A DNA stretch of 64,000 bases from an uncultured Actinomycetes bacterium (GTDB taxonomy: Bacteria > Actinomycetota > Geothermincolia > Fen-727 > JACVIW01). Every line of letters starts with the position of its first letter. Position 1 is the first letter of the stretch. The translations under genes and the position numbers were made by a program. The notes beneath the pieces were generated by a model. It made no database searches. It saw only the letters and a list, made by a program, of their open reading frames with translations, and was not told the origin of the DNA. Of this stretch, positions 6,818 through 45,429 are shown piece by piece. The stretch is from positions 9,028 to 73,027 of the forward strand of contig CAKZLU010000048.1 of NCBI GenBank assembly GCA_937127245.1, read 5' to 3'.

Positions 6818-7843
6818 ATGCTCGATAGGTATTTATCAATTCTTAAGAAAAAGAGTTACGCGCTTCATTGGCTGAGTGCCTCGGTGGGCTCGGGTCTTGA
6901 GAACGTTTCTCATTTTAGCGAGGAAGAGCTGTGGGAGGCTCATAGAGAGGGCATGATGAGGCTCGAGCGGCTGAAAAAATCCTCGACTGAGGAAAAGCTC
7001 GAGGAGCCCGGCGGTCTAAGCCTGCTTGATGTAAAGGTGGAACTTTCAAAAAGGATGCTCTCATCATGTCGTTTCTGTGAGCGTCGCTGCGGCGTGGATA
7101 GGACCGCCGGCGAGAAAGGGTACTGCAAGGTGGCGGCTGTCTCCCGTTACAGTTCCGATTTTCTCCATATGGGAGAGGAAATCGAACTTGTCCCGAGCCA
7201 CACAATCTTTTTCTCTGGCTGCACTTTTCACTGCGTCTATTGCCAGAACTGGGATATAGCTATGCATCCTGAATCGGGGAGGATCGCTGAGCCGTCAATG
7301 CTTTCAGCGGTGTTGATCGAGGGTATGTCGCAGGGATCGAGGAACGCAAACTTCGTTGGCGGGAATCCGGACCCTAATCTACACACCATACTTGAAACCG
7401 TGAAACTTGCGGGTTACCACGCGAGATTCCTTCCGATGGTATGGAACTCCAACATGTTCACCTCTCTTGAGGCGATGGACTTGCTTGACGGCGTCATGGA
7501 CATATACTTGGGGGATTTCAGGTACGGGAATGACGAGTGCGCCAATAAATACTCTGACGTTCAGGGATACTTTGAGGTTGTTTCGAGGAATTTCATGCTT
7601 GCCTATGAAAGAGCGGAAGTCATGTTAAGGCATCTTGTCATTCCAAACCATCTCCAGTGCTGCACTTTTCCCATAATGAAGTGGGTGAAGGAAAACATCC
7701 CAGACGTTTACTTCAATCTCATGTTTCAGTACAGACCCGAGTACAAAGCGCCTCTTTTCCCGGAGATAGACCGACGGCTTACATCAGAGGAGATAAGGGC
7801 GGCAGTGGAAATGGGGAAAGAACTCGGGATAAGGATGATGTGA
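6818..7843 (+). CDS. Radical SAM protein, PflX-like
   Basis: N-terminal CRFCERRCGVDR..GYC, CTFHCVYCQNWDI (CxxxCxxC), NFVGGNP, VWNSN, LRHLVIPNH. Confidence 0.85.
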   Translation: MLDRYLSILKKKSYALHWLSASVGSGLENVSHFSEEELWEAHREGMMRLERLKKSSTEEKLEEPGGLSLLDVKVELSKRMLSSCRFCERRCGVDRTAGEKGYCKVAAVSRYSSDFLHMGEEIELVPSHTIFFSGCTFHCVYCQNWDIAMHPESGRIAEPSMLSAVLIEGMSQGSRNANFVGGNPDPNLHTILETVKLAGYHARFLPMVWNSNMFTSLEAMDLLDGVMDIYLGDFRYGNDECANKYSDVQGYFEVVSRNFMLAYERAEVMLRHLVIPNHLQCCTFPIMKWVKENIPDVYFNLMFQYRPEYKAPLFPEIDRRLTSEEIRAAVEMGKELGIRMM

Positions 7844-32087: not shown

Positions 32088-35075
32088 TTGAGAGGAAAAA
32101 TTTTGGGCAATAGAACATTTCTAAGAGTCTCTTGCCTTTTCGTGGCTGTAAGCGTTGCGTTGTTGTTTCAGTCCGGGCTTGCAAGTTCTCAAGTTTCGCC
32201 AGCCGCGCCGCCGCGCTCAAACGATGTTCGCGCAAAGCGGGTACTGAAAACAGCGGGAGACCTCCTCCAAAGGATACAGAGAGCTTGCGAGAAAACGCGC
32301 GGGAAATTGATAACCAGCGTGACCGCCCCCCTGCGGCTCGGAAGCGCCCTTGAAGTGCAAAGCATAGAGGGGGAGGTTTATGAATACATAGTTCCTGTAG
32401 TCGATTTGGACTTTAGGACCCGGCTTGTAATAAGTGTTGACCCGAACGGAGAAAAATGGCGATGGTTTTCACAGTGGGGTTCACGCGAAGATTTTCCTCC
32501 CGTCTCCGCCAAAGAAGCTATCGAAAAGGCGAAAACCTTCTTGCGAAAGGACGGCATCAAGGGCGAGTGCGAGGATGCAGAAATGGTGCTTGCCCCGGAT
32601 AAGACCCTTTACTGGATGGTAAAGATTCTTGCCAACAGCAATGGCGGAAATCCGGATAGAGTTTACGTGCCCGTAATAAGTGAGGGAAGGATTCTTCGTG
32701 CTTCCGATTCTTGCCAGGTGGCAAAATGGGCAGAAGACTCCTGGTCCAAAGACCGGTCTTCCCCCGGTTCTGAGAGCCCCGCTAAACCATCTTATGGCAA
32801 AACCGGTCTGGTTGACGATGACCTTACCTCTATTTTAGCAGGCTCAAACAGCGGGGGCGAATCAAGAAAGACAAAGGCTGCTCCTCTTAATTACGAAATA
32901 CCCGATGTGCCTCATTATTATCAATCCACGAGTTACTGGTGCGGTCCCGCCTGTCTGCAGATGCTATTTGATTACTACGGCGAAAACGTAAGCCAGGCGG
33001 AGATTGCAAAGGTCGCGAACTCCAATTCTTCATACGGCGTTTACAACTCGGACCTGGTAAGAGCCGCGCACTTCTCGTCTAAGAGCACCGCTATACAGGA
33101 CCCTTCCTTGAAAGGGTACACTTCGCGCAAGACTGGGTACGGGGCAAATTACGCAAGATGGGCGAACGGCACCTCTCTTTACCCCAGTCGCTATACAGAT
33201 TTGAAAAATCTCATTGCCAACAACTTCCCGGTCCTTATTCTCACTGACTATAATTCGGGGCTAAACTCCGGACATTTCAGGCTTGTCAAGGGATACAATG
33301 ACAGCGTTGGCTACTTCACGGTTCATGATCCCTGGTATGCTGGCGCATACCAGGGTCCCAACGTGCACTTCAATCAGTCTTTTCTCGTCGATGACCTATG
33401 GCTTTATTCATCGCGCTGGGGAATGATAGCGGCGCCGTGGAGGGTTCTAGTGAGCAAGCCCGAAAGCGTTTCAGCCGGGGACGTTTTCACCGTTAAAGCT
33501 GACGTGAAATATCTTGGTCCAGCGCCAATGGATGGGAACTATGCCGTCTCATCGGCTACTGCCAGTATCACCGCCTCCTCCTCTGTCTACGCGCTCGTCT
33601 CAGGTTCGCCGTCTGTTTCTCTTACGAAAATAACCACCACCGGTTCCGAGGATCAGGCAACATGGACGCTTCAATCGCTTAAGAAAACCTCTACCGCAAA
33701 CATTGGCGTCAGAGCAACCGGGACCATCAACGGCTTTTCCTACAGTTATCCTTCCTATCAGGATGAAATCGGGGGGTACGGCGCGAAAGGGGGATCAAGC
33801 ACAACCTCAGGAAAGAGCGTGTGGTACCTTGCCGAGGGCTCGACCAACTGGGGATTTTCAACTTACATATCTATTGTCAATCCAAACACACAAGACGTCA
33901 CCGTGGCTGTCACCTACATGACTGAATCCGGCGCCGTGACGGGACCAAAGTTTAAGATGCCTGCCAAAAGCCAGGCTACGGTTGACCCCGCTTCCACGCT
34001 CGGGTCTGTGGACTTTTCGACCAAGGTGCGATGCGTTGAGGGAAAGACAATTGCCGTTGACCGTTGCATGATCTGGCAGGCAAACGGCGCGACCAGATCT
34101 GAGGCGCATTCTTCAATAGGGGTTACCTCCCCCTCCAAAGTATGGTATTTGCCGGAGGGCTCATCTTCCTGGGGTTTCGAATGCTGGCTTCTTATCCAGA
34201 ACCCAAACTCCAGGAAAGCTTTGTGCGAAGTCACCTACATGATTGAGGGCGGGTCGCCTAAGAGTTTCAAAAGAGAGATACCGCCAAATTCGAGGAAAAC
34301 GTTCAGCATGCTTCAGGACATTGGTAAAAAAGACGCCTCGATTAAGGTAAGTTCTGATGCGGGAGTCATCGCGGAAAGAGCAATGTATAGAAACTCGAGG
34401 ATATGCGGGCACGGATCGATCGGCGCGACGAGTCCCGCATACAACTTTTTTCTCGCTGAGGGTACAACCAATTACGGCTTTACAACCTATATCCTTGTGC
34501 AGAATCCATCAAGCGAGCCGGCGGAGGTAAACATCACCTACATGACCGAATCAGGTCCGACCGCTCATCCGGCTAATCCCATTTTGATGCCCCCGCTATC
34601 GCGAAAGACCGTAAGGGTAAACGATTTTCTTCCCCCCGTGGATTTTTCAACGCGGGTGTCCAGTAATAAAAAGATAGTTGCCGAAAGGGCGATGTATTGG
34701 TCTGCCGGCGATGGCGGGGGAGAAGCTTGCCACGACTCGATAGGATTGAGCGCTCCGGCAAGGGTTTTCTATCTGCCAGATGGTGACACCACCGGGGATA
34801 AGGAGACATACACGCTGGTACAAAACCCGAATTCTTCCGAAATAGTTGTTGAGGTCTCATATCTTACAGCCACTGGCAAAGGAAACGTCACGCTTGAAGA
34901 GGCAATACCGGCATACTCGCGGAGAACTTTTATTATGGCAGACATAATCCCCAATGGAAGAGCCGCAATCGTTGTCCGCTCCAAGACCTCGGGCAAAAAA
35001 ATTATGGTTGAGCGCGCCATGTACTGGAACAGCCGCGGTGCCGGGACCGACACTATCGGCGGTTTCAGCGACTAA
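32088..35075 (+). CDS. Secreted C39-like cysteine peptidase with four C-terminal DUF5719-like repeats
   Basis: Signal peptide; QSTSYWCGPAC, GHFRLVKGY, VHDPW (Cys/His/Asp); repeats starting WYLAEGST, WYLPEGSS, FFLAEGTT, FYLPDGDT, each with xNPN and ERAMY-like motifs. Confidence 0.8.
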   Translation: MRGKILGNRTFLRVSCLFVAVSVALLFQSGLASSQVSPAAPPRSNDVRAKRVLKTAGDLLQRIQRACEKTRGKLITSVTAPLRLGSALEVQSIEGEVYEYIVPVVDLDFRTRLVISVDPNGEKWRWFSQWGSREDFPPVSAKEAIEKAKTFLRKDGIKGECEDAEMVLAPDKTLYWMVKILANSNGGNPDRVYVPVISEGRILRASDSCQVAKWAEDSWSKDRSSPGSESPAKPSYGKTGLVDDDLTSILAGSNSGGESRKTKAAPLNYEIPDVPHYYQSTSYWCGPACLQMLFDYYGENVSQAEIAKVANSNSSYGVYNSDLVRAAHFSSKSTAIQDPSLKGYTSRKTGYGANYARWANGTSLYPSRYTDLKNLIANNFPVLILTDYNSGLNSGHFRLVKGYNDSVGYFTVHDPWYAGAYQGPNVHFNQSFLVDDLWLYSSRWGMIAAPWRVLVSKPESVSAGDVFTVKADVKYLGPAPMDGNYAVSSATASITASSSVYALVSGSPSVSLTKITTTGSEDQATWTLQSLKKTSTANIGVRATGTINGFSYSYPSYQDEIGGYGAKGGSSTTSGKSVWYLAEGSTNWGFSTYISIVNPNTQDVTVAVTYMTESGAVTGPKFKMPAKSQATVDPASTLGSVDFSTKVRCVEGKTIAVDRCMIWQANGATRSEAHSSIGVTSPSKVWYLPEGSSSWGFECWLLIQNPNSRKALCEVTYMIEGGSPKSFKREIPPNSRKTFSMLQDIGKKDASIKVSSDAGVIAERAMYRNSRICGHGSIGATSPAYNFFLAEGTTNYGFTTYILVQNPSSEPAEVNITYMTESGPTAHPANPILMPPLSRKTVRVNDFLPPVDFSTRVSSNKKIVAERAMYWSAGDGGGEACHDSIGLSAPARVFYLPDGDTTGDKETYTLVQNPNSSEIVVEVSYLTATGKGNVTLEEAIPAYSRRTFIMADIIPNGRAAIVVRSKTSGKKIMVERAMYWNSRGAGTDTIGGFSD

Positions 35076-37377: not shown

Positions 37378-37575
37378 TCACTTGAAGCATTTGACGAACC
37401 GCTCGAATGAACGGTCGTAGGTACGTTCTACGTCGGCTGGAAAAGCGCACGCCGGGAGCTGCCTTTTGGAAAGATGATATTTTATGCACTCGCAGCACTT
37501 ACCCTTGCGGCTGCATGGTTCGTAGGTGCAGTTGCAGAAAGACATGTTCTGCTCGATGTTCGGACACTCGCTCAC
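37378..37575 (-). CDS. Small Cys-rich protein (DUF6485-like)
   Basis: [30 protein letters not shown] pattern; GGAGG RBS before a GTG start. Confidence 0.75.
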
Positions 37576-37811: not shown

Positions 37812-38891
37812 TTATAAATAATCCTCGCTGAGAATCTTTGGCTCTTTGTCACTGAGCTCGTAAAGCCTGACGCTTCGGTCAATCACCAGCCAGGTTTCGT
37901 TGGGTACATTATCCTCATTGCCGACCGTCCAGCAACCGCAATTTGCGATCAGGACATCCATATCCGGAATTCTACCGATACCCGGTCTGTGCGTATGACC
38001 GAAGACGAAGCAGTCAGCGTCGGGCTGTTCGAATAGGGGAAGCAAGCCTTTAATTTCGTCGTAGTTTTCGCGGATGAGGCTGTCGCGAAGCGGTGATTTA
38101 AGCATCTTTTCCGATCGGAATATTCGGGCGAAAAAAGACAGCAGATGATAAAACTTAAGCCCCTCGATGACTAATTCCGGTACCCACGGCATGACCGACA
38201 TCGCGCCGCAGAACGGTATGTTCGCCATTTCTATATCATGCAGGGTAACTTTTGCCCTTCTTCTTTTCATGATGAACCGACTGAGCCAGAAGGTGCGGAA
38301 CCACCCTCCTTTTGTGGCGTAGAAGTCCAGATGGTGCCCGTGCGCAAGAACCACTTTCCTACCGTTCATTATCCGCACGATGTAAGGATAAACCATTGGG
38401 AAGTTTTCACCCGCTCTCGAGTCGATCCCGCTTAAAACCGTGTCCCCGTAAGCCCTGGCCGGCATGAATTTTGGAGTCTTGAGCTTGCCTTGCATGATGC
38501 TCATGTCCATCTCGAGTCGGAATGCGTTCATAAACATCTGATGGTCGTGGTTGCCGGGGACGTATATGAATTTCTTTACGGCATCTAAGCTCGTGATTTT
38601 TTCGATAAAATATCTCGCGCATCTCAAAGCGGGCATGGGAGTTTTTACCCAGAGGTCAAGAATATCCCCGAGTAGAACGAACTCATCAATCTCCCCGATG
38701 CTGGAAACCGCTTCCGCGAATTTATCGACGCGCTTTCTGTTATCAAGGAGCTGGGTTTCGTCGCCGAAGTGAGTGTCGGATATGATGAGAAGCCTTTCCA
38801 CTTCGTTTTCGATCAGACAATTGAGATTGCTCGCCGCAAGGTTTTGGTTTTCGTAATTGCTCTCTTCGCGTCTTTGATTATTAATGTTCAT
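37812..38891 (-). CDS. Calcineurin-like metallophosphoesterase
   Basis: SDTHFG, LGDILDLW, PGNHDH, AHGH, FGHTHR, NCGCW. Confidence 0.85.
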   Translation of the reverse strand: MNINNQRREESNYENQNLAASNLNCLIENEVERLLIISDTHFGDETQLLDNRKRVDKFAEAVSSIGEIDEFVLLGDILDLWVKTPMPALRCARYFIEKITSLDAVKKFIYVPGNHDHQMFMNAFRLEMDMSIMQGKLKTPKFMPARAYGDTVLSGIDSRAGENFPMVYPYIVRIMNGRKVVLAHGHHLDFYATKGGWFRTFWLSRFIMKRRRAKVTLHDIEMANIPFCGAMSVMPWVPELVIEGLKFYHLLSFFARIFRSEKMLKSPLRDSLIRENYDEIKGLLPLFEQPDADCFVFGHTHRPGIGRIPDMDVLIANCGCWTVGNEDNVPNETWLVIDRSVRLYELSDKEPKILSEDYL

Positions 38892-39141: not shown

Positions 39142-40841
39142 ATGTTACTTTATAGGAAATCGTTTAAATTTCTTCCACCAAGAAGGGCGCTACTGATATT
39201 TTTTGTCTAATTTTTACAGCCATCGTTTTAGTGATTTTTTCGCAAAATCTAGCGCTCTGTCAGGATTACAGTTTCGAGGTTCCCAGACAGGAGGTTACCG
39301 CGCGCATCAATCAGGATTCATCCCTGAGCATCGAATATCGCATTACCTTTCGTAATACAAGCCCTCGCGTTCCCATAGACATTATCGATATCGGTATGCC
39401 CACTCAAAAATACATTCTTGAGAAGTGCTAGGCGTTTTTGGACGGGGAACCTATATCTGATATCAGACCGTCAACCGTGGTCTCTCCCGGGGTCGAGGTT
39501 CATCTCGGAAATAAGGCGATTGAGCCAGGGGATGAGGCTGTTTTCGAGTTCAGCGGGATAGTCCCGCAGATGGTGTTCCAGGATAAGCGCCGCCAAGGTT
39601 ACGCGTCGGTTAAGTTTAAGAACACCTGGTGGGATCACCGTTACGCCTACGGAAAATGTTATCTTCAGCTCAGCATTCAGTTTCCCAAAGGGGTTAAACC
39701 GAACGAAACTATCTATCACGGTGAGGAAAAGCCGCTTTTCACCGTTTCGAGTCAGGGTATAACTTTTACCTGGATTCATCAGGATGCTTCTCCAAGCCAG
39801 GGTTACCTGCACGGCGTCTCTCATCCCAGCCGTATACGTGACCGGAGTTTATCCGGAACAACCTCTCCCTGATTACACTCCGCCCCAAGCTCCTGGTACT
39901 TACGGCATGGAATATGAGTCGTCAGGGCCTAAGGATATCTTTGTCGCGGTGTGGTTGTCCGTATTCCTGGCCTTGATGATAGCAATTATCACCAGATTGC
40001 GGTATGTCCCGGTTGCCGTTAGGAAGCGGGGGAAGAAGCTTGCCTACATCCAGCCGAAGTTGTCTGTGGAGGGCGCCGGTCCCGCGAAAGACGTTTTACC
40101 CGTTGAGTACGCGGTGCTTGACCGCCAGGACCTCGACAGGATTGCCGCCATTGTTTTTTTCGAGATGGTTTTATGCGGAGTTGTTGAGATAGCCGGGGTA
40201 AGACCTTTGAGATTGACGAGGAGGGAAAAACCGTTGGGAGGTTTTCCCCCTTACTTCATTGATTTTGCCGAAGCTATACGCGAAGACGGAGAAGTGTCCT
40301 CTGATGCTTTACGAAAAGCGCTAACGCTCCTTATAGAAAACACGGAGGCAAAAGTCACGGGTTTTCACTTAAGGACACCGTTGAGAATTTCAAAGAACGG
40401 ATCTCAAAAGCCTGGCTTGAGGTAAAGGCAAAAGCGGACCACTCGGAGAGGGTTTCAGCTTTCATGAGAAATTTACCAACCTTAATCGCCGATGCCGGTT
40501 TCTCGGAGAAGGTTAAAGATACTTTAGGACATGGCTCATACCCTCTTAGCGGAGAGGCAATTGACACGCTCAGGCGTGCGGGTTGTCTTGAAGGCTCTGA
40601 ACTTGGCTCAATTTTGGAAGAGGGTAAGATTGAGGGAAGCAAGCTAGCACATCGTTTAGGCTCCTCATTTACTGGAATCCAGGACGGGCTTTTCCTTCTT
40701 ACCCGAGACATGGAGGAAGAGGTATTAAAAATGACCAATCCGGAGGAATACCAACGTCAATTGAGGTACAGAAGGTATTACGCAACGCGCTATGTTGGCG
40801 GCTCTGGATGCGCCTGCGCCTGCGCTGGAGGCGGTCGATAG
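39142..40841 (+). pseudogene. Disrupted membrane protein with C-terminal CACACAGGGR tail
   Basis: Four consecutive fragments join into one ORF: ATG 39142 signal peptide, frameshift in T6 (39199-39204), in-frame TAG 39429-31, frameshift near 39816-39822, frameshift in T4 (40362-65). It ends YVGGSGCACACAGGGR*. Confidence 0.75.
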
Positions 40842-40920
40842 AGGTAGAGGAAACTTCGCCCCGTTTGAGTTTTTAAGCGTTTAAGTTTTTACGCTGGGCA
40901 CCAAAGGTTTGTCGTGAAGG

Positions 40921-42317
40921 ATGGCTAAAGGGAAATTCTCAAGGATAAGAAATTTCAAAGGACCTTTCAGGGGGCTTGAGGAAAGGCTTTCAAAAGCCGA
41001 GGCGATACCTTCGGGTCTTTACCATTTCACCCTTGATGAGCAGGGCGTGCCGAGGCGCTTCCATTTGAGAGTGGAACCTGACGGGAAGGGTCTTTTAACG
41101 ATTGACGCAAGCAGAATAATCCATTTAAACGAAACCGCCACAGAGTATGTGAAATTGATTTTAGTGGGCGCAGATGAAAGGACGGTTGTTAAGCGCGTGC
41201 GTTCCCGCTATGCGGTTGACAGAAACAAGGTGCTTCGGGACCTAAAAGAGATTCGAGAGAAAGTATTGATTCTTGCGCATGACTGGAAGATATGCCCGAT
41301 AACTTTTTTGGACTTAGACAAAATCGAGCCTTTCACCACGCCGGTCAGCGTCCCCTACCGGATGGACCTTGCCCTCACTTACAGGTGTAACAACAACTGC
41401 GCCCATTGCTATGTGGAAAGACCCCGAAACTATCCAGAGCTCGACACCCAATCCTGGAAAAAGGTTCTTTCAAAAATCTGGGAAATAGGCATTTTCCATG
41501 TGGTTTTCACTGGCGGTGAGGCGACGTTACGAGATGACCTTGTTGAACTGATAGATTACGCCGAGAACGTTGGGTTCGTGACAGGTCTTTTAACAAACGG
41601 GCGCAGGCTTGTCCAGGACTCCCTAATGAAAGGCTTTCCGAAGCGGGGCTTGACCATGTCCAGATAACCCTCGAATCGCATCTTGAAAACGTACACGATA
41701 AAATGACCGGCTGGAGGGGGGCGTTTGAGGAGACCCTGGAAGGGATTCAGGTAGCGGTGGACTCCCCCGTTTACACTATCACAAACACCGCAATTACTTC
41801 CCAAAACAAAGAAACCATCGTCAAGACAGCGGAATTTCTTTGCGGTCTTGGTCTTGATGGTATCGCGATGAACGGGATCATATATACGGGTGGGGCGAGG
41901 GACGAGAGGTTAGGCGTTTCCGAAAAGGAGATGAGGGAGATACTAAAGAGGGTCCTCGATGTTACCAGGCGCGCAAACGTAAGGTTTATATGGTACACGC
42001 CCACCAGGTATTGCGAACTTAACCCTGTCTTGCTGGGACTTGGCCCAAAACAGTGTACAGCGTCTAAATACAATATGTGCGTGGAGCCAAACGGTGACGT
42101 CATTCCCTGTCAGAGCTCTTATAAGGTAGCGGGAAACATGCTTGCGGATGACTGGGAGTCAATATGGAATAATCCGGTATCCTTGTATTTCAGAGACCGG
42201 GAATACGCTCCAGAGGAGTGCAAGGAATGCGAGTTCTTTCCTCTCTGCGGGGCGTCATGTCCGCTTTCATATGAGAGCCGTTGCATACTCTGCTTTGAAA
42301 GCAAATCGTCAGGCTAA
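40921..42317 (+). pseudogene. Frameshifted radical SAM/SPASM maturase with N-terminal PqqD/RRE-like region
   Basis: HLNETA..Y.V RRE-like segment, CNNNCAHC, FTGGEATLR. One extra A in A3 at 41629-31 joins the two ORFs (MKRLSEAGLDHVQITLES). SPASM-type CTAS..CVEPNGDVIPC and CKECEFFPLCGASC. Confidence 0.82.
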
Positions 42318-42395
42318 AAGGTTTTCCTGCTCGGAAACCTGGATGCTCCTTTTTTAAAGTTGTCATGTGGTTAAAGGAAGCTCGCAGAGGGTCAT

Positions 42396-43223
42396 ATGTT
42401 TAGGGTTAGGCCGATGTTTGAATCCGCCGAGGAAGCAAGCCGCTTTTTCGCCCACCAGGCTTTGCGCACTTCCGCGATAAGAAGGGAATTATACAGGAGA
42501 GCCGGAATCCAGAGGATGAAATCCATACTTGATGCCGGTTGCGGCACCGGCGAGATAACCTCTCAGTTAAGGGAGATTACCACCGCTAACGTGACAGGCG
42601 TTGATATCGAAGAAATTTTTATAAAGTGCGCGCGATCTAACTATGGGGGTGTTGATTTCCGTTGCTCTGACTGCGCTTCTCTACCCTATGAGGATTGTTG
42701 TTTTGACATGGTGACATTCCACTTCTTCCTGATGTGGGCGCAAAAGCCATCTCGGGTTATCGGGGAGCTTTTGAGGGTTTTAAAACGTGGGGGAGTTCTG
42801 CTCGCGTGCGCTGAGCCGGACTACGGGGGTATCATCGAATACCCTGAAAACCGTGAGTTCAGAAAGGCGGAAGAGGAGGCTCTTCGCGCGCGCGGCGCTG
42901 ACACGAAAATAGGCAGGAAACTCGGATTTCTTTTAAGGGAAGCGGGGCTGAGCGTGAATCAGGGCGTTTTCGCCTCGGTAATTGAGGGACGGCAACTCGT
43001 TGAAGATCTCAGGTTCATGAAAGATTTCTATTTAAGGGATTTCACTCAAATAATGGATGAGAAGAGAGCCCGAACGTTGATCGAGAAAGAGATTAAAATT
43101 GCGGCGCGCGGAAAGGTGATGGTAACCCCCCCCTTTTTTGGGCGCTCGCAAGAAAGAATTAGACGAAATGGCACATTATTAATTTTTGCCGGTTACAAGG
43201 TTATGCGGTTTTGGCTTTCCTGA
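42396..43223 (+). CDS. Class I SAM-dependent methyltransferase (C-terminus possibly frameshifted)
   Basis: ILDAGCGTG, GVDI, LPYEDCCFD, VLKRGG, EPDYGG. An alternative frame after the C8T6 tract gives a compact WALARKN* end at 43162. Confidence 0.85.
   Translation: MFRVRPMFESAEEASRFFAHQALRTSAIRRELYRRAGIQRMKSILDAGCGTGEITSQLREITTANVTGVDIEEIFIKCARSNYGGVDFRCSDCASLPYEDCCFDMVTFHFFLMWAQKPSRVIGELLRVLKRGGVLLACAEPDYGGIIEYPENREFRKAEEEALRARGADTKIGRKLGFLLREAGLSVNQGVFASVIEGRQLVEDLRFMKDFYLRDFTQIMDEKRARTLIEKEIKIAARGKVMVTPPFFGRSQERIRRNGTLLIFAGYKVMRFWLS
43126..43139 (+). repeat. C8T6 homopolymer tract inside the methyltransferase gene
   Basis: CCCCCCCCTTTTTT read directly from the sequence. Confidence 0.9.
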
Positions 43224-43506: not shown

Positions 43507-45429
43507 TTGGAGATGAACGGACAAAAAAGTGACGAGGCTTTTCATTTTAGCCCGAGACCGAACAGAGCTTCAGAAATAAACTGGTTTCACTGGGGTATTG
43601 AGCCGTTTGAGCGCGCCCAGAGAGATGGAAAACTCATAATCCTGTCCATATCCGCTTCGTGGTGTCACTGGTGTCATGTGATGGATGAAACAACCTATTC
43701 TGACCCCGACGTAATACGGAAGATAAATGAGAATTTTGTGGCGATAAGGGTTGACAGCGACAGAAGACCGGACATAAACAGGCGTTACAACCAGGGGGGT
43801 TGGCCAACGACCGCTTTCCTTCTGCCGAGTGGCGCTGCCATCGCCGGTCTGACTTATGCCCCGCCTCAGTATTTTTCCGCACTGCTTGATAAATTGAGCG
43901 CACTTTACAAAAGCAGGCGGGAGGAAATTGAGGTCTGCTCAGTGATAGTTGAGGAGGAAACAAAATCTTTTCTGGATGCTTTCAAGTGCGGGGGCAAGAT
44001 TACGGATGAAATTTCTGATTGGATGGCGTCCGTCATAGAAAAGGACGCCGATCCGGATTTCGGCGGGCTTGGGCTTGAGCCGAAGTTCCCACCAACCGGC
44101 GCTCTGGAATTCTCAATTGCGAGGTTGGAGCGCCAGAAGGATGACAGGCTGCAAAGATTTGTGGTTGCCACGCTAAACGCGATAAGACTCGGGGGATTGT
44201 TTGATGAGGTCGAGGGAGGTTTCTTTCGTTACTCCACCGTGAGGGACTGGTCAAAGCCTCACTATGAGAAAATGCTCGAGGACAACGCCGAGCTTCTGCG
44301 GATATATCTTTCTGCGTCCCGCCTTCTTGGAAATCCGGAGTATGAGCAAACCGCAAGAAGGGTTATAGAGTATTGTCTTGATAAGTTATACCTCAAAGAT
44401 GTTCCTGGATTTTCAGGAAGCCAGGACGCGGATGAGGAATATTACCTCAAAAGTTTTGAGGGTAGAAAGGCTTTAAGCGCTCCCGCTGTGGATGAAACGC
44501 TCTTTGTTGACGCTAACTCCCTTATGATTTCGGCTCTCTCCTACGCTTCCGTTGTGCTTAATATGCCTTTCCTTCTTGATAGAGCCATGGAGATAGCTGA
44601 TTTTATTTGGTCCAATGGCTTTCATCCCTCAAAAGGACTATGTCACTACTTCCCGCCCATTACCCGCAGTCCTAAAATGTGGGGGGAGGCGAGGGATCAG
44701 GTCTTTTACCTGAAAGCCCTTGTCGACCTTTACCAGATTACGGGCCTGAGAAAATTTTTCGAAAGGGCCCTTCAACTTGGCGGTTTACTGCGCGATTTGT
44801 TCCTGACGGAGCATGGCTGGATCGGTGAGGCTTCTTCCGTCAAACGCGAGGAGGAAAGCGGGAATGATAAGTTTGACGAGGGGTTAGGCAAGGCTGAAGA
44901 AAAACTGAAAGGAGAGCCTCACGAGAATGGACCGTGCCTGAACTCTTGCGCTCGCGGGAACCTTCTATCCTGCCTGCCGGTTGATGCGCCGGATATGAAG
45001 GTCAACGGTATCGCGATCATCGCATTAGGCGCTTTGGACTGGCTTGTCCCTGTTGAGTTGACCCAGAATGAGGGATATGGCTTCGAAAATACAGCTTACG
45101 GTATCGCTGATTCACTTAAAGGGGCATACGAGCGGTTCTCGCATTTCGCCGCCTGGTATGTGATGGGCGTTCATAATCTTATCAAGGGGCGAATCGAGGT
45201 AAGGATTTCTCCGGAAGCCGGACCTGATGAGGCAAGCGAACTCATCAAGCGGTTCATACAAGTATTTGATCTGGCTACCGTCATCAGGCGCGAGAGAGTG
45301 GATGATTTCATCGAGACTGACTCGAAAACCCGCAGACCTCTTGCGGTGATATGCGCGCCTGGACGGTGTGTCCCCGTTTTCTCCATATCGGAAACTGAGA
45401 AAATCATGGAATCATTACGCACCGATTGA
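43507..45429 (+). CDS. Thioredoxin-domain protein, YyaL/SSP411 (DUF255) family
   Basis: WCHWCHVM, VDSDRRPDIN, GGWPTTAFL, GGFFRYS, PHYEKMLEDN, SQDAD. Confidence 0.88.
   Translation: MEMNGQKSDEAFHFSPRPNRASEINWFHWGIEPFERAQRDGKLIILSISASWCHWCHVMDETTYSDPDVIRKINENFVAIRVDSDRRPDINRRYNQGGWPTTAFLLPSGAAIAGLTYAPPQYFSALLDKLSALYKSRREEIEVCSVIVEEETKSFLDAFKCGGKITDEISDWMASVIEKDADPDFGGLGLEPKFPPTGALEFSIARLERQKDDRLQRFVVATLNAIRLGGLFDEVEGGFFRYSTVRDWSKPHYEKMLEDNAELLRIYLSASRLLGNPEYEQTARRVIEYCLDKLYLKDVPGFSGSQDADEEYYLKSFEGRKALSAPAVDETLFVDANSLMISALSYASVVLNMPFLLDRAMEIADFIWSNGFHPSKGLCHYFPPITRSPKMWGEARDQVFYLKALVDLYQITGLRKFFERALQLGGLLRDLFLTEHGWIGEASSVKREEESGNDKFDEGLGKAEEKLKGEPHENGPCLNSCARGNLLSCLPVDAPDMKVNGIAIIALGALDWLVPVELTQNEGYGFENTAYGIADSLKGAYERFSHFAAWYVMGVHNLIKGRIEVRISPEAGPDEASELIKRFIQVFDLATVIRRERVDDFIETDSKTRRPLAVICAPGRCVPVFSISETEKIMESLRTD

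Follow-up and report, generated by a model that had tools for sequence, protein, structure and literature searches.

Three co-oriented genes on the + strand of a 64,000-nucleotide stretch of DNA from an uncultured Actinomycetes bacterium (assembly GCA_937127245.1, contig CAKZLU010000048.1, positions 9,028 to 73,027; the whole stretch is called the window here) encode a membrane protein with a C-terminal Cys-Ala repeat, a radical S-adenosylmethionine (SAM) enzyme that carries a recognition element for RiPPs (ribosomally synthesised and post-translationally modified peptides), the RRE, together with a SPASM domain, and a class I methyltransferase (39142-43223). This locus is probably a decayed copy of a widespread cassette, whose radical SAM enzyme probably modifies the tail of the membrane protein. 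To our knowledge, nearly all RRE-radical SAM-SPASM enzymes described so far produce small modified peptides; in this cassette, which has more than 1,000 sequence clusters, such an enzyme is tied instead to the tail of a whole membrane protein. A first-pass annotation of this DNA, made from the letters alone, had described the same three genes, and they are present on the + strand at the positions that it gave.

The tail is the most conserved stretch of the membrane protein. The family members are 24-60% identical, yet their C-termini are nearly invariant, usually (CA)3-5-G-(CA)3-GGGR with the core CACACAGGGR. A search with the read-through protein of the window returned more than 120 full-length homologues, nearly all of which end in GCACACACAGCACACAGGGR or CACACAGCACACACAGGGR. 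The Ala positions of the tail are conserved as strongly as the Cys positions. In the intact copies, a flexible linker of Gly and Ser leads into the repeat. A conserved Asn-Pro motif is found 20-25 residues before the tail; in members from outside the clade of the window, it is usually TNPxP. Judging from its codons, the tail is conserved as a peptide, that is, by selection at the protein level: each of 86 loci encodes this peptide by a tail DNA of its own. Among them, Cys appears with both of its codons, Ala with all four, and Arg with six, and each of the three stop codons occurs.

The tail motif and its gene pairing recur in hundreds of unrelated genomes, which is far beyond chance. When 1.84 billion cluster representatives were searched with a profile of the family, 1,269 clusters (counted at 50% identity) were recovered at E<=1e-3, and 459 at 1e-30. 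The first-pass annotation had placed the tail and the radical SAM enzyme in one system, and tail-bearing homologues are indeed found nearly always beside this enzyme. Starting from the tail, the radical SAM gene was beside or near the tailed gene in all seven metagenome contigs of diverse homologues that were inspected, and the methyltransferase gene in five. In a survey of 80 tailed loci on GTDB contigs, with one genome per species, a cassette-type radical SAM gene was present in 64, which corresponds to 64 of the 71 loci that could be judged. The other 16 comprise nine that run into a contig end and seven that were scored as lacking the enzyme; one of the seven, L077, has a fragment of it, cut by a masked run. 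In these genome loci, the radical SAM gene mostly starts 0-100 nt downstream of the stop codon of the membrane protein gene, or overlaps it. Starting from the enzyme, at least 62 of the 80 closest radical SAM homologues in metagenome contigs lie just downstream of a Cys-X-repeat tail. A linkage of about 90% in both directions suggests an enzyme-substrate pair. The methyltransferase, which had been proposed as a further member of the cassette, is a frequent partner and not a constant one, since it was found in 47 of the 80 genome loci.

The length of the tail varies. All clade relatives of the window carry CACACACAGCACACAGGGR, and the tail of the window is eight residues shorter; the same one-block form occurs in L103 and in the homologue P0039. 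At the other extreme, three-block tails, such as SCACACAACACVCACVSCACACASGGVG, account for 15 of the at least 62 tailed loci among the closest radical SAM homologues. Taken together, the one-, two-, and three-block tails suggest that the constant feature is the alternation of Cys with another residue, over one to three blocks, followed by GGG and a basic residue. A fixed hairpin for the two-block tail was not adopted as a general model, since one- and three-block tails exist. In the three-block variants (L128, L130, L133, L137, L140, L143, L152, L155, L156, L160, L161, L166, and L167), some non-Cys positions are occupied by Val, Ser, His, or Asn (e.g., ...SCACACAACACVCACVSCACACASGGVG and ...SCVCACHACACACACVSCACACAGGGAR), and the radical SAM gene directly follows.

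The sampled carriers of the cassette belong to Chloroflexota, Actinomycetota, delta-proteobacterial metagenome-assembled genomes (MAGs), Cloacimonadota, Acidobacteriota, and Zixibacteria, and a 50%-identical radical SAM enzyme is annotated as coming from a Thermoplasmata archaeon. There are also cultured, harmless carriers, namely Bellilinea caldifistulae GOMI-1 and Leptolinea sp. HRD-7, which make modification of the tail testable.

Two further genes are found in many copies of the cassette. The first encodes a protein of 110-140 amino acids with two transmembrane helices and a C-terminal zinc ribbon, and is located just upstream of the tailed gene, in places overlapping it, in 74 of the 80 genome loci (for example, L004 5576-6007, L007 5672-6007, L005 2510-2860, and L006 1994-2335). 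It is absent from the window and from L001, L002, and L003. The second encodes a divergent radical SAM-like paralogue, which occurs in L005 (4411-5727), L006 (4667-5965), and many Anaerolineae loci (e.g., L067 13044-14228); it gives weak matches to PqqD, Radical_SAM, and SPASM, and 200-400 bits on the hidden Markov model (HMM) of the radical SAM family. The paralogue is absent from the window and from its closest relatives, L001 and L002. Upstream of the radical SAM gene of another locus, L117, the neighbours encode a 4Fe-4S membrane protein and a 5'-nucleotidase.

The membrane protein of the window is readable solely by joining four pieces, and the family HMM matches four pieces of open reading frame (ORF) in order. 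L001 is the closest intact relative; it is syntenic with the window over eight genes and was the reference for placing the lesions. A tblastn comparison with the L001 protein gave three high-scoring segments in two frames, 46-69% identical. At the first lesion, frame 1 reads MLLYRKSFKFLPPRRALLIFF and then meets a stop, and frame 0 carries on with LIFTAIVLVIF.... Read through, the protein starts with a signal or anchor helix, which is followed by an outer domain rich in beta strands, a single strong transmembrane helix, a cytoplasmic domain, and the tail. The transmembrane helix is IFVAVWLSVFLALMIAIITRL, and the next 15 residues hold six Lys or Arg. This positive-inside charge places the tail in the cytoplasm, where it would be within reach of an oxygen-sensitive Fe-S enzyme.

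The same arrangement is predicted for an intact orthologue, P0002, whose AlphaFold2 model has a mean predicted local distance difference test score (pLDDT) of 82.9. The model begins with a signal or anchor helix at the N-terminus; next come a beta-sandwich predicted with confidence (residues 81-265), a transmembrane helix (294-330), and a cytoplasmic winged-helix/helical domain (354-582). The tail (583-608) is disordered, with a pLDDT below 50. The outer domain is similar in Foldseek searches to ribophorin I and to the N-domain of M1 peptidases; only this beta-sandwich was identified, and the searches gave no functional clue for the cytoplasmic domain. No Pfam or NCBIfam family was assigned to the membrane protein, either as the pieces in the window or as intact homologues. 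Some family members (P0241, P0242, P0246, P0249, and P0251) are about 770-840 amino acids long and match the profile from near residue 240, so they have an extra N-terminal region.

The enzyme encoded next to the tail is, according to its domain matches and its modelled fold, a bona fide RRE-radical SAM-SPASM protein of the peptide-maturase type. Three structural features of such maturases were found, the radical SAM motif, the SPASM domain, and the N-terminal RRE; the fourth, a short leader-core precursor encoded nearby, was not found at the locus. The pieces in the window match the Pfam models PqqD (PF05402; 27.8 bits against a cut-off of 23.4), Radical_SAM (51.3 bits), and SPASM (41.2 bits), and they reach 45.2 bits on TIGR04085 (SPASM); both SPASM scores are above the cut-off. 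In an alignment of 64 homologues, the cysteines of the radical SAM cluster (C160, C164, and C167) are invariant, as are those at positions 369, 383, 401, 438, 441, 447, and 451 of the SPASM region. The window enzyme is 76% identical to that of L001, and the family HMM gives 341 and 366 bits on its two pieces. The AlphaFold2 model of the L001 enzyme, built with 64 homologues, has a pLDDT of 87.4 and a predicted template modelling score of 0.87; its N-terminus forms beta strands (36-73) followed by three helices (75-124). The best PDB matches of this model in Foldseek are SuiB (5v1t; E=8e-16, 435 columns including the RRE), SkfB (6efn), PqqE (6c8v), and CteB (5why).

The methyltransferase matches Methyltransf_11 (PF08241) with 79.8 bits and PF13649 with 68.8 bits, and is a class I enzyme of the ordinary type. 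Of the named families, DVU_1556 (NF045667) is the closest to it, with a score of 66.8 bits, which is below the cut-off of 155. The first-pass calls of a PqqD/RRE-like N-terminus, of radical SAM and SPASM cysteines, and of a class I methyltransferase are therefore borne out.

Neither the window pieces of the radical SAM enzyme nor four intact orthologues reach the cut-off of an NCBIfam equivalog. The best match of the intact orthologues is PqqE or another family, with 115-135 bits against cut-offs of 381-525. The named families that were compared include PqqE (TIGR02109), StsB (NF045574), the SCIFF maturase (TIGR03974), the ACGX enzyme (TIGR04340), anSME (TIGR03942), SkfB (TIGR04403), and MftC (TIGR03962). 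The 25 best NCBIfam families listed for each of the six scanned sequences do not include CrpC (TIGR04463).

In the mechanism that we propose, the RRE of the enzyme would dock on the region upstream of the tail, which includes the conserved Asn-Pro motif. The cytoplasmic enzyme would then modify the Cys-Ala repeat in place, most likely by introducing several Cys-to-carbon thioether cross-links; the methyltransferase, where present, would add further methylation, and the product would stay tethered to the membrane protein. On balance, we favour the tail as the substrate of the radical SAM enzyme. Thioethers are the best guess at the chemistry, and a less likely proposition than the tail being a substrate at all; they are suggested by analogy, given that RRE-radical SAM-SPASM enzymes make them on Cys-rich cores, with StsB and CrpC as precedents. 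A wider proposal, which we hold tentatively, is that the tail of a membrane protein of receptor-like build is turned, by a post-translational modification that spans phyla, into a ladder of several thioethers on the protein, a sulfur-rich cofactor, or a metal site, whose size is set by the number of blocks (one to three). Its machinery, put forward with the same reserve, may consist of the RRE-radical SAM-SPASM enzyme and the methyltransferase, joined in most lineages by the membrane protein with the zinc ribbon and by the radical SAM-like paralogue. A modification of the tail, should it occur, would be a new one at the level of whole proteins, and in anaerobes it might amount to a new signalling module or tethered cofactor.

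Several observations weigh against a modified tail. No modified tail has ever been observed, and the modification chemistry is inferred. Five loci (L013, L016, L022, L044, and L058) have a perfect tail and no radical SAM gene within 3-10 kb, and in L029 only a radical SAM gene of the paralogue type is located downstream of the tail. From the side of the enzyme, at least six pairs of radical SAM and methyltransferase genes (L095, L100, L109, L117, L121, and L146) have no tailed protein in the 2.9-6 kb upstream. The PqqD score of the window enzyme is barely above the threshold. Finally, Cys-X-Cys runs are classic thiolate metal ligands, and the tail could work unmodified.

The last point leads to the strongest of the other explanations, that the tail is an unmodified metal or Fe-S site with alternating thiols on one face of a strand, for which the radical SAM enzyme loads or assembles a cluster, unless it acts elsewhere. 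CxCxC runs are typical thiolate ligand sets, the five loci named above keep a perfect tail with no radical SAM gene nearby, and the number of Cys blocks (one, two, or three) varies as expected of a modular ligand array; a downstream gene for a DUF255 thioredoxin-like protein, syntenic in the window and L001, also fits. We nevertheless consider this explanation unlikely, because the enzyme has an RRE, a domain for recognising peptides, and the known structures most like its own are those of peptide cross-linkers. The linkage in both directions fits an enzyme-substrate pair better, and the Ala residues, conserved as strongly as Cys, would be needless in a pure ligand array.

The copy of the cassette in the window has very likely become a pseudogene cluster, and recently, as suggested by the distribution of its lesions and its pattern of divergence (Table 1). 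There are six lesions: four single-base indels and one TAG codon in the genes for the membrane protein and the radical SAM enzyme, and a frame slip at the 3' end of the methyltransferase gene. This slip replaces the last ~10 residues and adds 21; frame 0 reads ...VTPPFFGRSQE, and the other frame, PPLFWALARKN followed by a stop, matches ...TPVFWALARK of L001. Each of the five flanking genes encodes a protein of the same length as in L001 or one that differs by at most two residues (995/996, 595/595, 359/359, 640/642, and 363/363 amino acids), and no other checked gene is split in the 64-kb window. Suspected frameshifts at 6818/7657, 25793/26449/26657, and 48384/48842 proved to be separate intact genes.

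Two genes of the cassette have also diverged further than their L001 counterparts. In comparison with the outgroup L002, two flanking proteins of the window are as similar as those of L001 (71.8 versus 71.2% and 59.0 versus 58.4%), whereas the membrane protein and the radical SAM enzyme of the window are more diverged than those of L001 by 3.3 and 5.1 points, respectively. The window sequences also depart from the family-conserved columns more often than the family median.

Could the broken frames be assembly or sequencing errors, with a working, undamaged cassette in the organism itself? Homopolymer runs (T6, T4, A3, and C8T6), a typical site of long-read error, contain four of the five indels. 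The radical SAM gene is similarly split into two or three ORFs in three long-read MAGs (MFD bins; L008, L027, and L087), probably by homopolymer errors, and these cases call for caution in taking frameshifts as signs of decay. In addition, the conserved catalytic motifs are all retained in the window, and the short tail alone is no proof of decay, given that L103 has a one-block tail beside an apparently intact radical SAM gene. Against this, the TAG in place of Tyr and the indel at 39819-31 are not homopolymer events. Only 86 of the 1,229 homopolymer runs of at least four bases in the window (7%) are in the cassette, yet all four run-associated indels occurred there, for which the chance is (86/1229)^4, or ~2e-5. 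The intact reading frames and orthologue-matching lengths of the other genes, the extra substitutions at conserved columns, and the faster rate than in L001 also speak against sequencing error, which we regard as improbable.

A TAG read as a sense codon and programmed frameshifting were also rejected, since there are five independent frame breaks in three genes and intact orthologues elsewhere. With six frame-breaking lesions, the system is very probably dead in the window genome. The first-pass annotation had called for repair of the frames, whereas a decaying pseudogene cluster is what the evidence favours, and a product is unlikely here. That the cassette decays while its neighbours stay intact indicates that it is dispensable in at least one lineage.

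Short precursor peptides are the normal arrangement for RRE-radical SAM-SPASM enzymes. The real substrate of the enzyme might accordingly be a small unannotated precursor, with the adjacency of the membrane protein being coincidental or regulatory, and the pairs of radical SAM and methyltransferase genes with no tailed protein nearby would agree with this. No Cys-rich or conserved small ORF was found in the intergenic gaps, however, and these gaps are mostly 0-100 nt between the stop of the membrane protein gene and the start of the radical SAM gene, where the two do not overlap. The sole conserved small partner is the zinc-ribbon protein with its two transmembrane helices, which is not precursor-like. 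A hidden precursor is therefore very improbable for the family and was rejected for the window locus, where the gaps contain no plausible small ORF, as the first-pass annotation had already noted. The possibility that the tail is conserved as DNA, a (TGCGCC)n repeat with a role as nucleic acid, can be dismissed: the tail DNA of the window is a simple hexamer repeat, but all 86 loci differ in DNA for one and the same peptide, with free synonymous variation.

Table 1. Coordinates of the cassette, its domains and motifs, and its lesions, numbered from the first letter of the window.
Feature	Position	Strand	Basis or remark
Cys-Ala-tailed type-I membrane protein, probable pseudogene	39142..40841	+	~560-565 amino acids read through; tblastn, family HMM
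Lesion 1, frameshift in T6 run	39199..39204	+	Parts ATG 39142 and the signal-peptide n-region from the remainder
Lesion 2, in-frame TAG nonsense codon	39429..39431	+	Tyr in L001 (EKCYAF versus EKC-stop-AF)
Lesion 3, single-base indel, frame 0 to 1	39819..39831	+	Conserved GVSFPxxYV motif (GVS/IPAVY); frame switch of tblastn segments
Lesion 4, indel in T4 run, frame 1 to 0	40362..40365	+	Conserved KxKGFS motif
C-terminal tail CACACAGGGR, one-block form	40809..40838	+	Stop codon 40839-40841
RRE-radical SAM-SPASM enzyme, one break	40921..42317	+	~465 amino acids read through; Pfam, family HMM
RRE (PqqD-like) segment of the radical SAM enzyme	41092..41250	+	Pfam PF05402 over residues 58-110
CxxxCxxC radical SAM cluster motif, CNNNCAHC	41386..41409	+	Sequence; invariant alignment columns
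Lesion 5, indel in A3 run, frame shift in the radical SAM gene	41629..41631	+	LMK/RLSEAGLDH
SPASM domain, predicted Cys ligands of two auxiliary clusters	42012..42233	+	Pfam SPASM, TIGR04085
Class I SAM-dependent methyltransferase	42396..43223	+	Methyltransf_11; 65% identical to the L001 orthologue
Lesion 6, frame slip in C8T6 run	43126..43139	+	Methyltransferase 3' end versus L001

Upstream of the cassette and divergent from it are the genes for a 65-amino-acid Cys-rich DUF6485 protein (37378-37575, - strand) and a 359-amino-acid metallophosphoesterase (37812-38891, - strand). The pair has the same place in L002, and L001 keeps the phosphoesterase there. Three genes upstream of the cassette, a 995-amino-acid protein with Peptidase_C39_2 and DUF5719 domains is encoded (32088-35075, + strand), and this gene is syntenic in L001; C39-type peptidases carry out leader processing in some RiPPs. 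Directly 3' of the methyltransferase gene is that of a 640-amino-acid Thioredox_DsbH (DUF255) protein (43507-45429, + strand), which is syntenic in L001 and not in L002. The window encodes a second radical SAM protein, unrelated to the cassette (6818-7843, + strand, 341 amino acids, Radical_SAM and Fer4_12).

Parts of the cassette resemble known systems to different degrees. DUF2207-type proteins share with the membrane protein a signal peptide, an outer beta-rich domain, transmembrane helices, and a Gly-rich C-terminal end, and one homologue is named 'DUF2207 domain-containing' by UniRef. The tails of DUF2207 proteins are Gly-rich and are not Cys-Ala repeats, and the Pfam DUF2207 models (PF09972 / PF20990) had no match at E<=0.1 in five full-length homologues (P0002, P0022, P0055, P0103, and P0112) or in the window pieces.

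Among the peptide maturases, SuiB, SkfB, CteB, and PqqE are the best structural matches and have the same order of three domains. They are only 16-22% identical to the enzyme of the cassette, and they act on the short precursors SuiA, SkfA, SCIFF, and PqqA. In the ACGX-repeat system described by Haft, a radical SAM-SPASM enzyme is reportedly paired with a substrate made of short Ala/Cys/Gly repeats. Matches of the cassette enzymes to the ACGX model TIGR04340 are weak (62-72 bits against a cut-off of 400), and ACGX peptides are small and stand-alone. Further whole-protein substrates of radical SAM-SPASM enzymes are QhpC, on which QhpD acts, and the sulfatases.

The closest likeness of the tail itself is in StsA/StsB/StsC of Streptomyces sparsogenes, and also BlaA/BlaB, where StsB links Cys2, Cys4, and Cys6 of a CxCxC core through S-to-C-alpha bonds to Gly, giving a hairpin (PMC10288494). 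As in the cassette, a radical SAM-SPASM enzyme and an RRE are combined with Cys at every second position, and the tail of the window family likewise joins CxCxC with Gly. There are three differences: StsA is a short free precursor with a leader, whereas the Cys run is here the C-terminus of a membrane protein of ~560 amino acids; the RRE of the Sts system is a separate protein, whereas here it is fused to the enzyme; and the radical SAM enzymes of the family score 78-84 bits against the NF045574 cut-off of 625, which makes them non-members.

The first-pass annotation knew of no characterised system of this type. For the cassette as a whole this stands, as no Pfam or NCBIfam model describes it, and a literature search found no paper on the tail or on its pairing with the radical SAM enzyme. 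It does not hold for the principle, since whole-protein substrates of radical SAM-SPASM enzymes are in print: CrpC of Methanococcus voltae (TIGR04463) is an RRE-radical SAM-SPASM enzyme that makes thioether (ranthionine) cross-links on a large Cys-rich neighbour protein, CrpA (PMC13692751). As with CrpC, the candidate substrate in the cassette is a full-size protein encoded next to the enzyme, and not a small peptide. CrpA is soluble and has ten 17-residue repeats with CxxQ/D motifs, while the cassette has one short (CA)n stretch at the end of a membrane protein. Given the precedent of CrpA, the cassette is not categorically new, and would extend modification at the protein level to the tail of a membrane protein.

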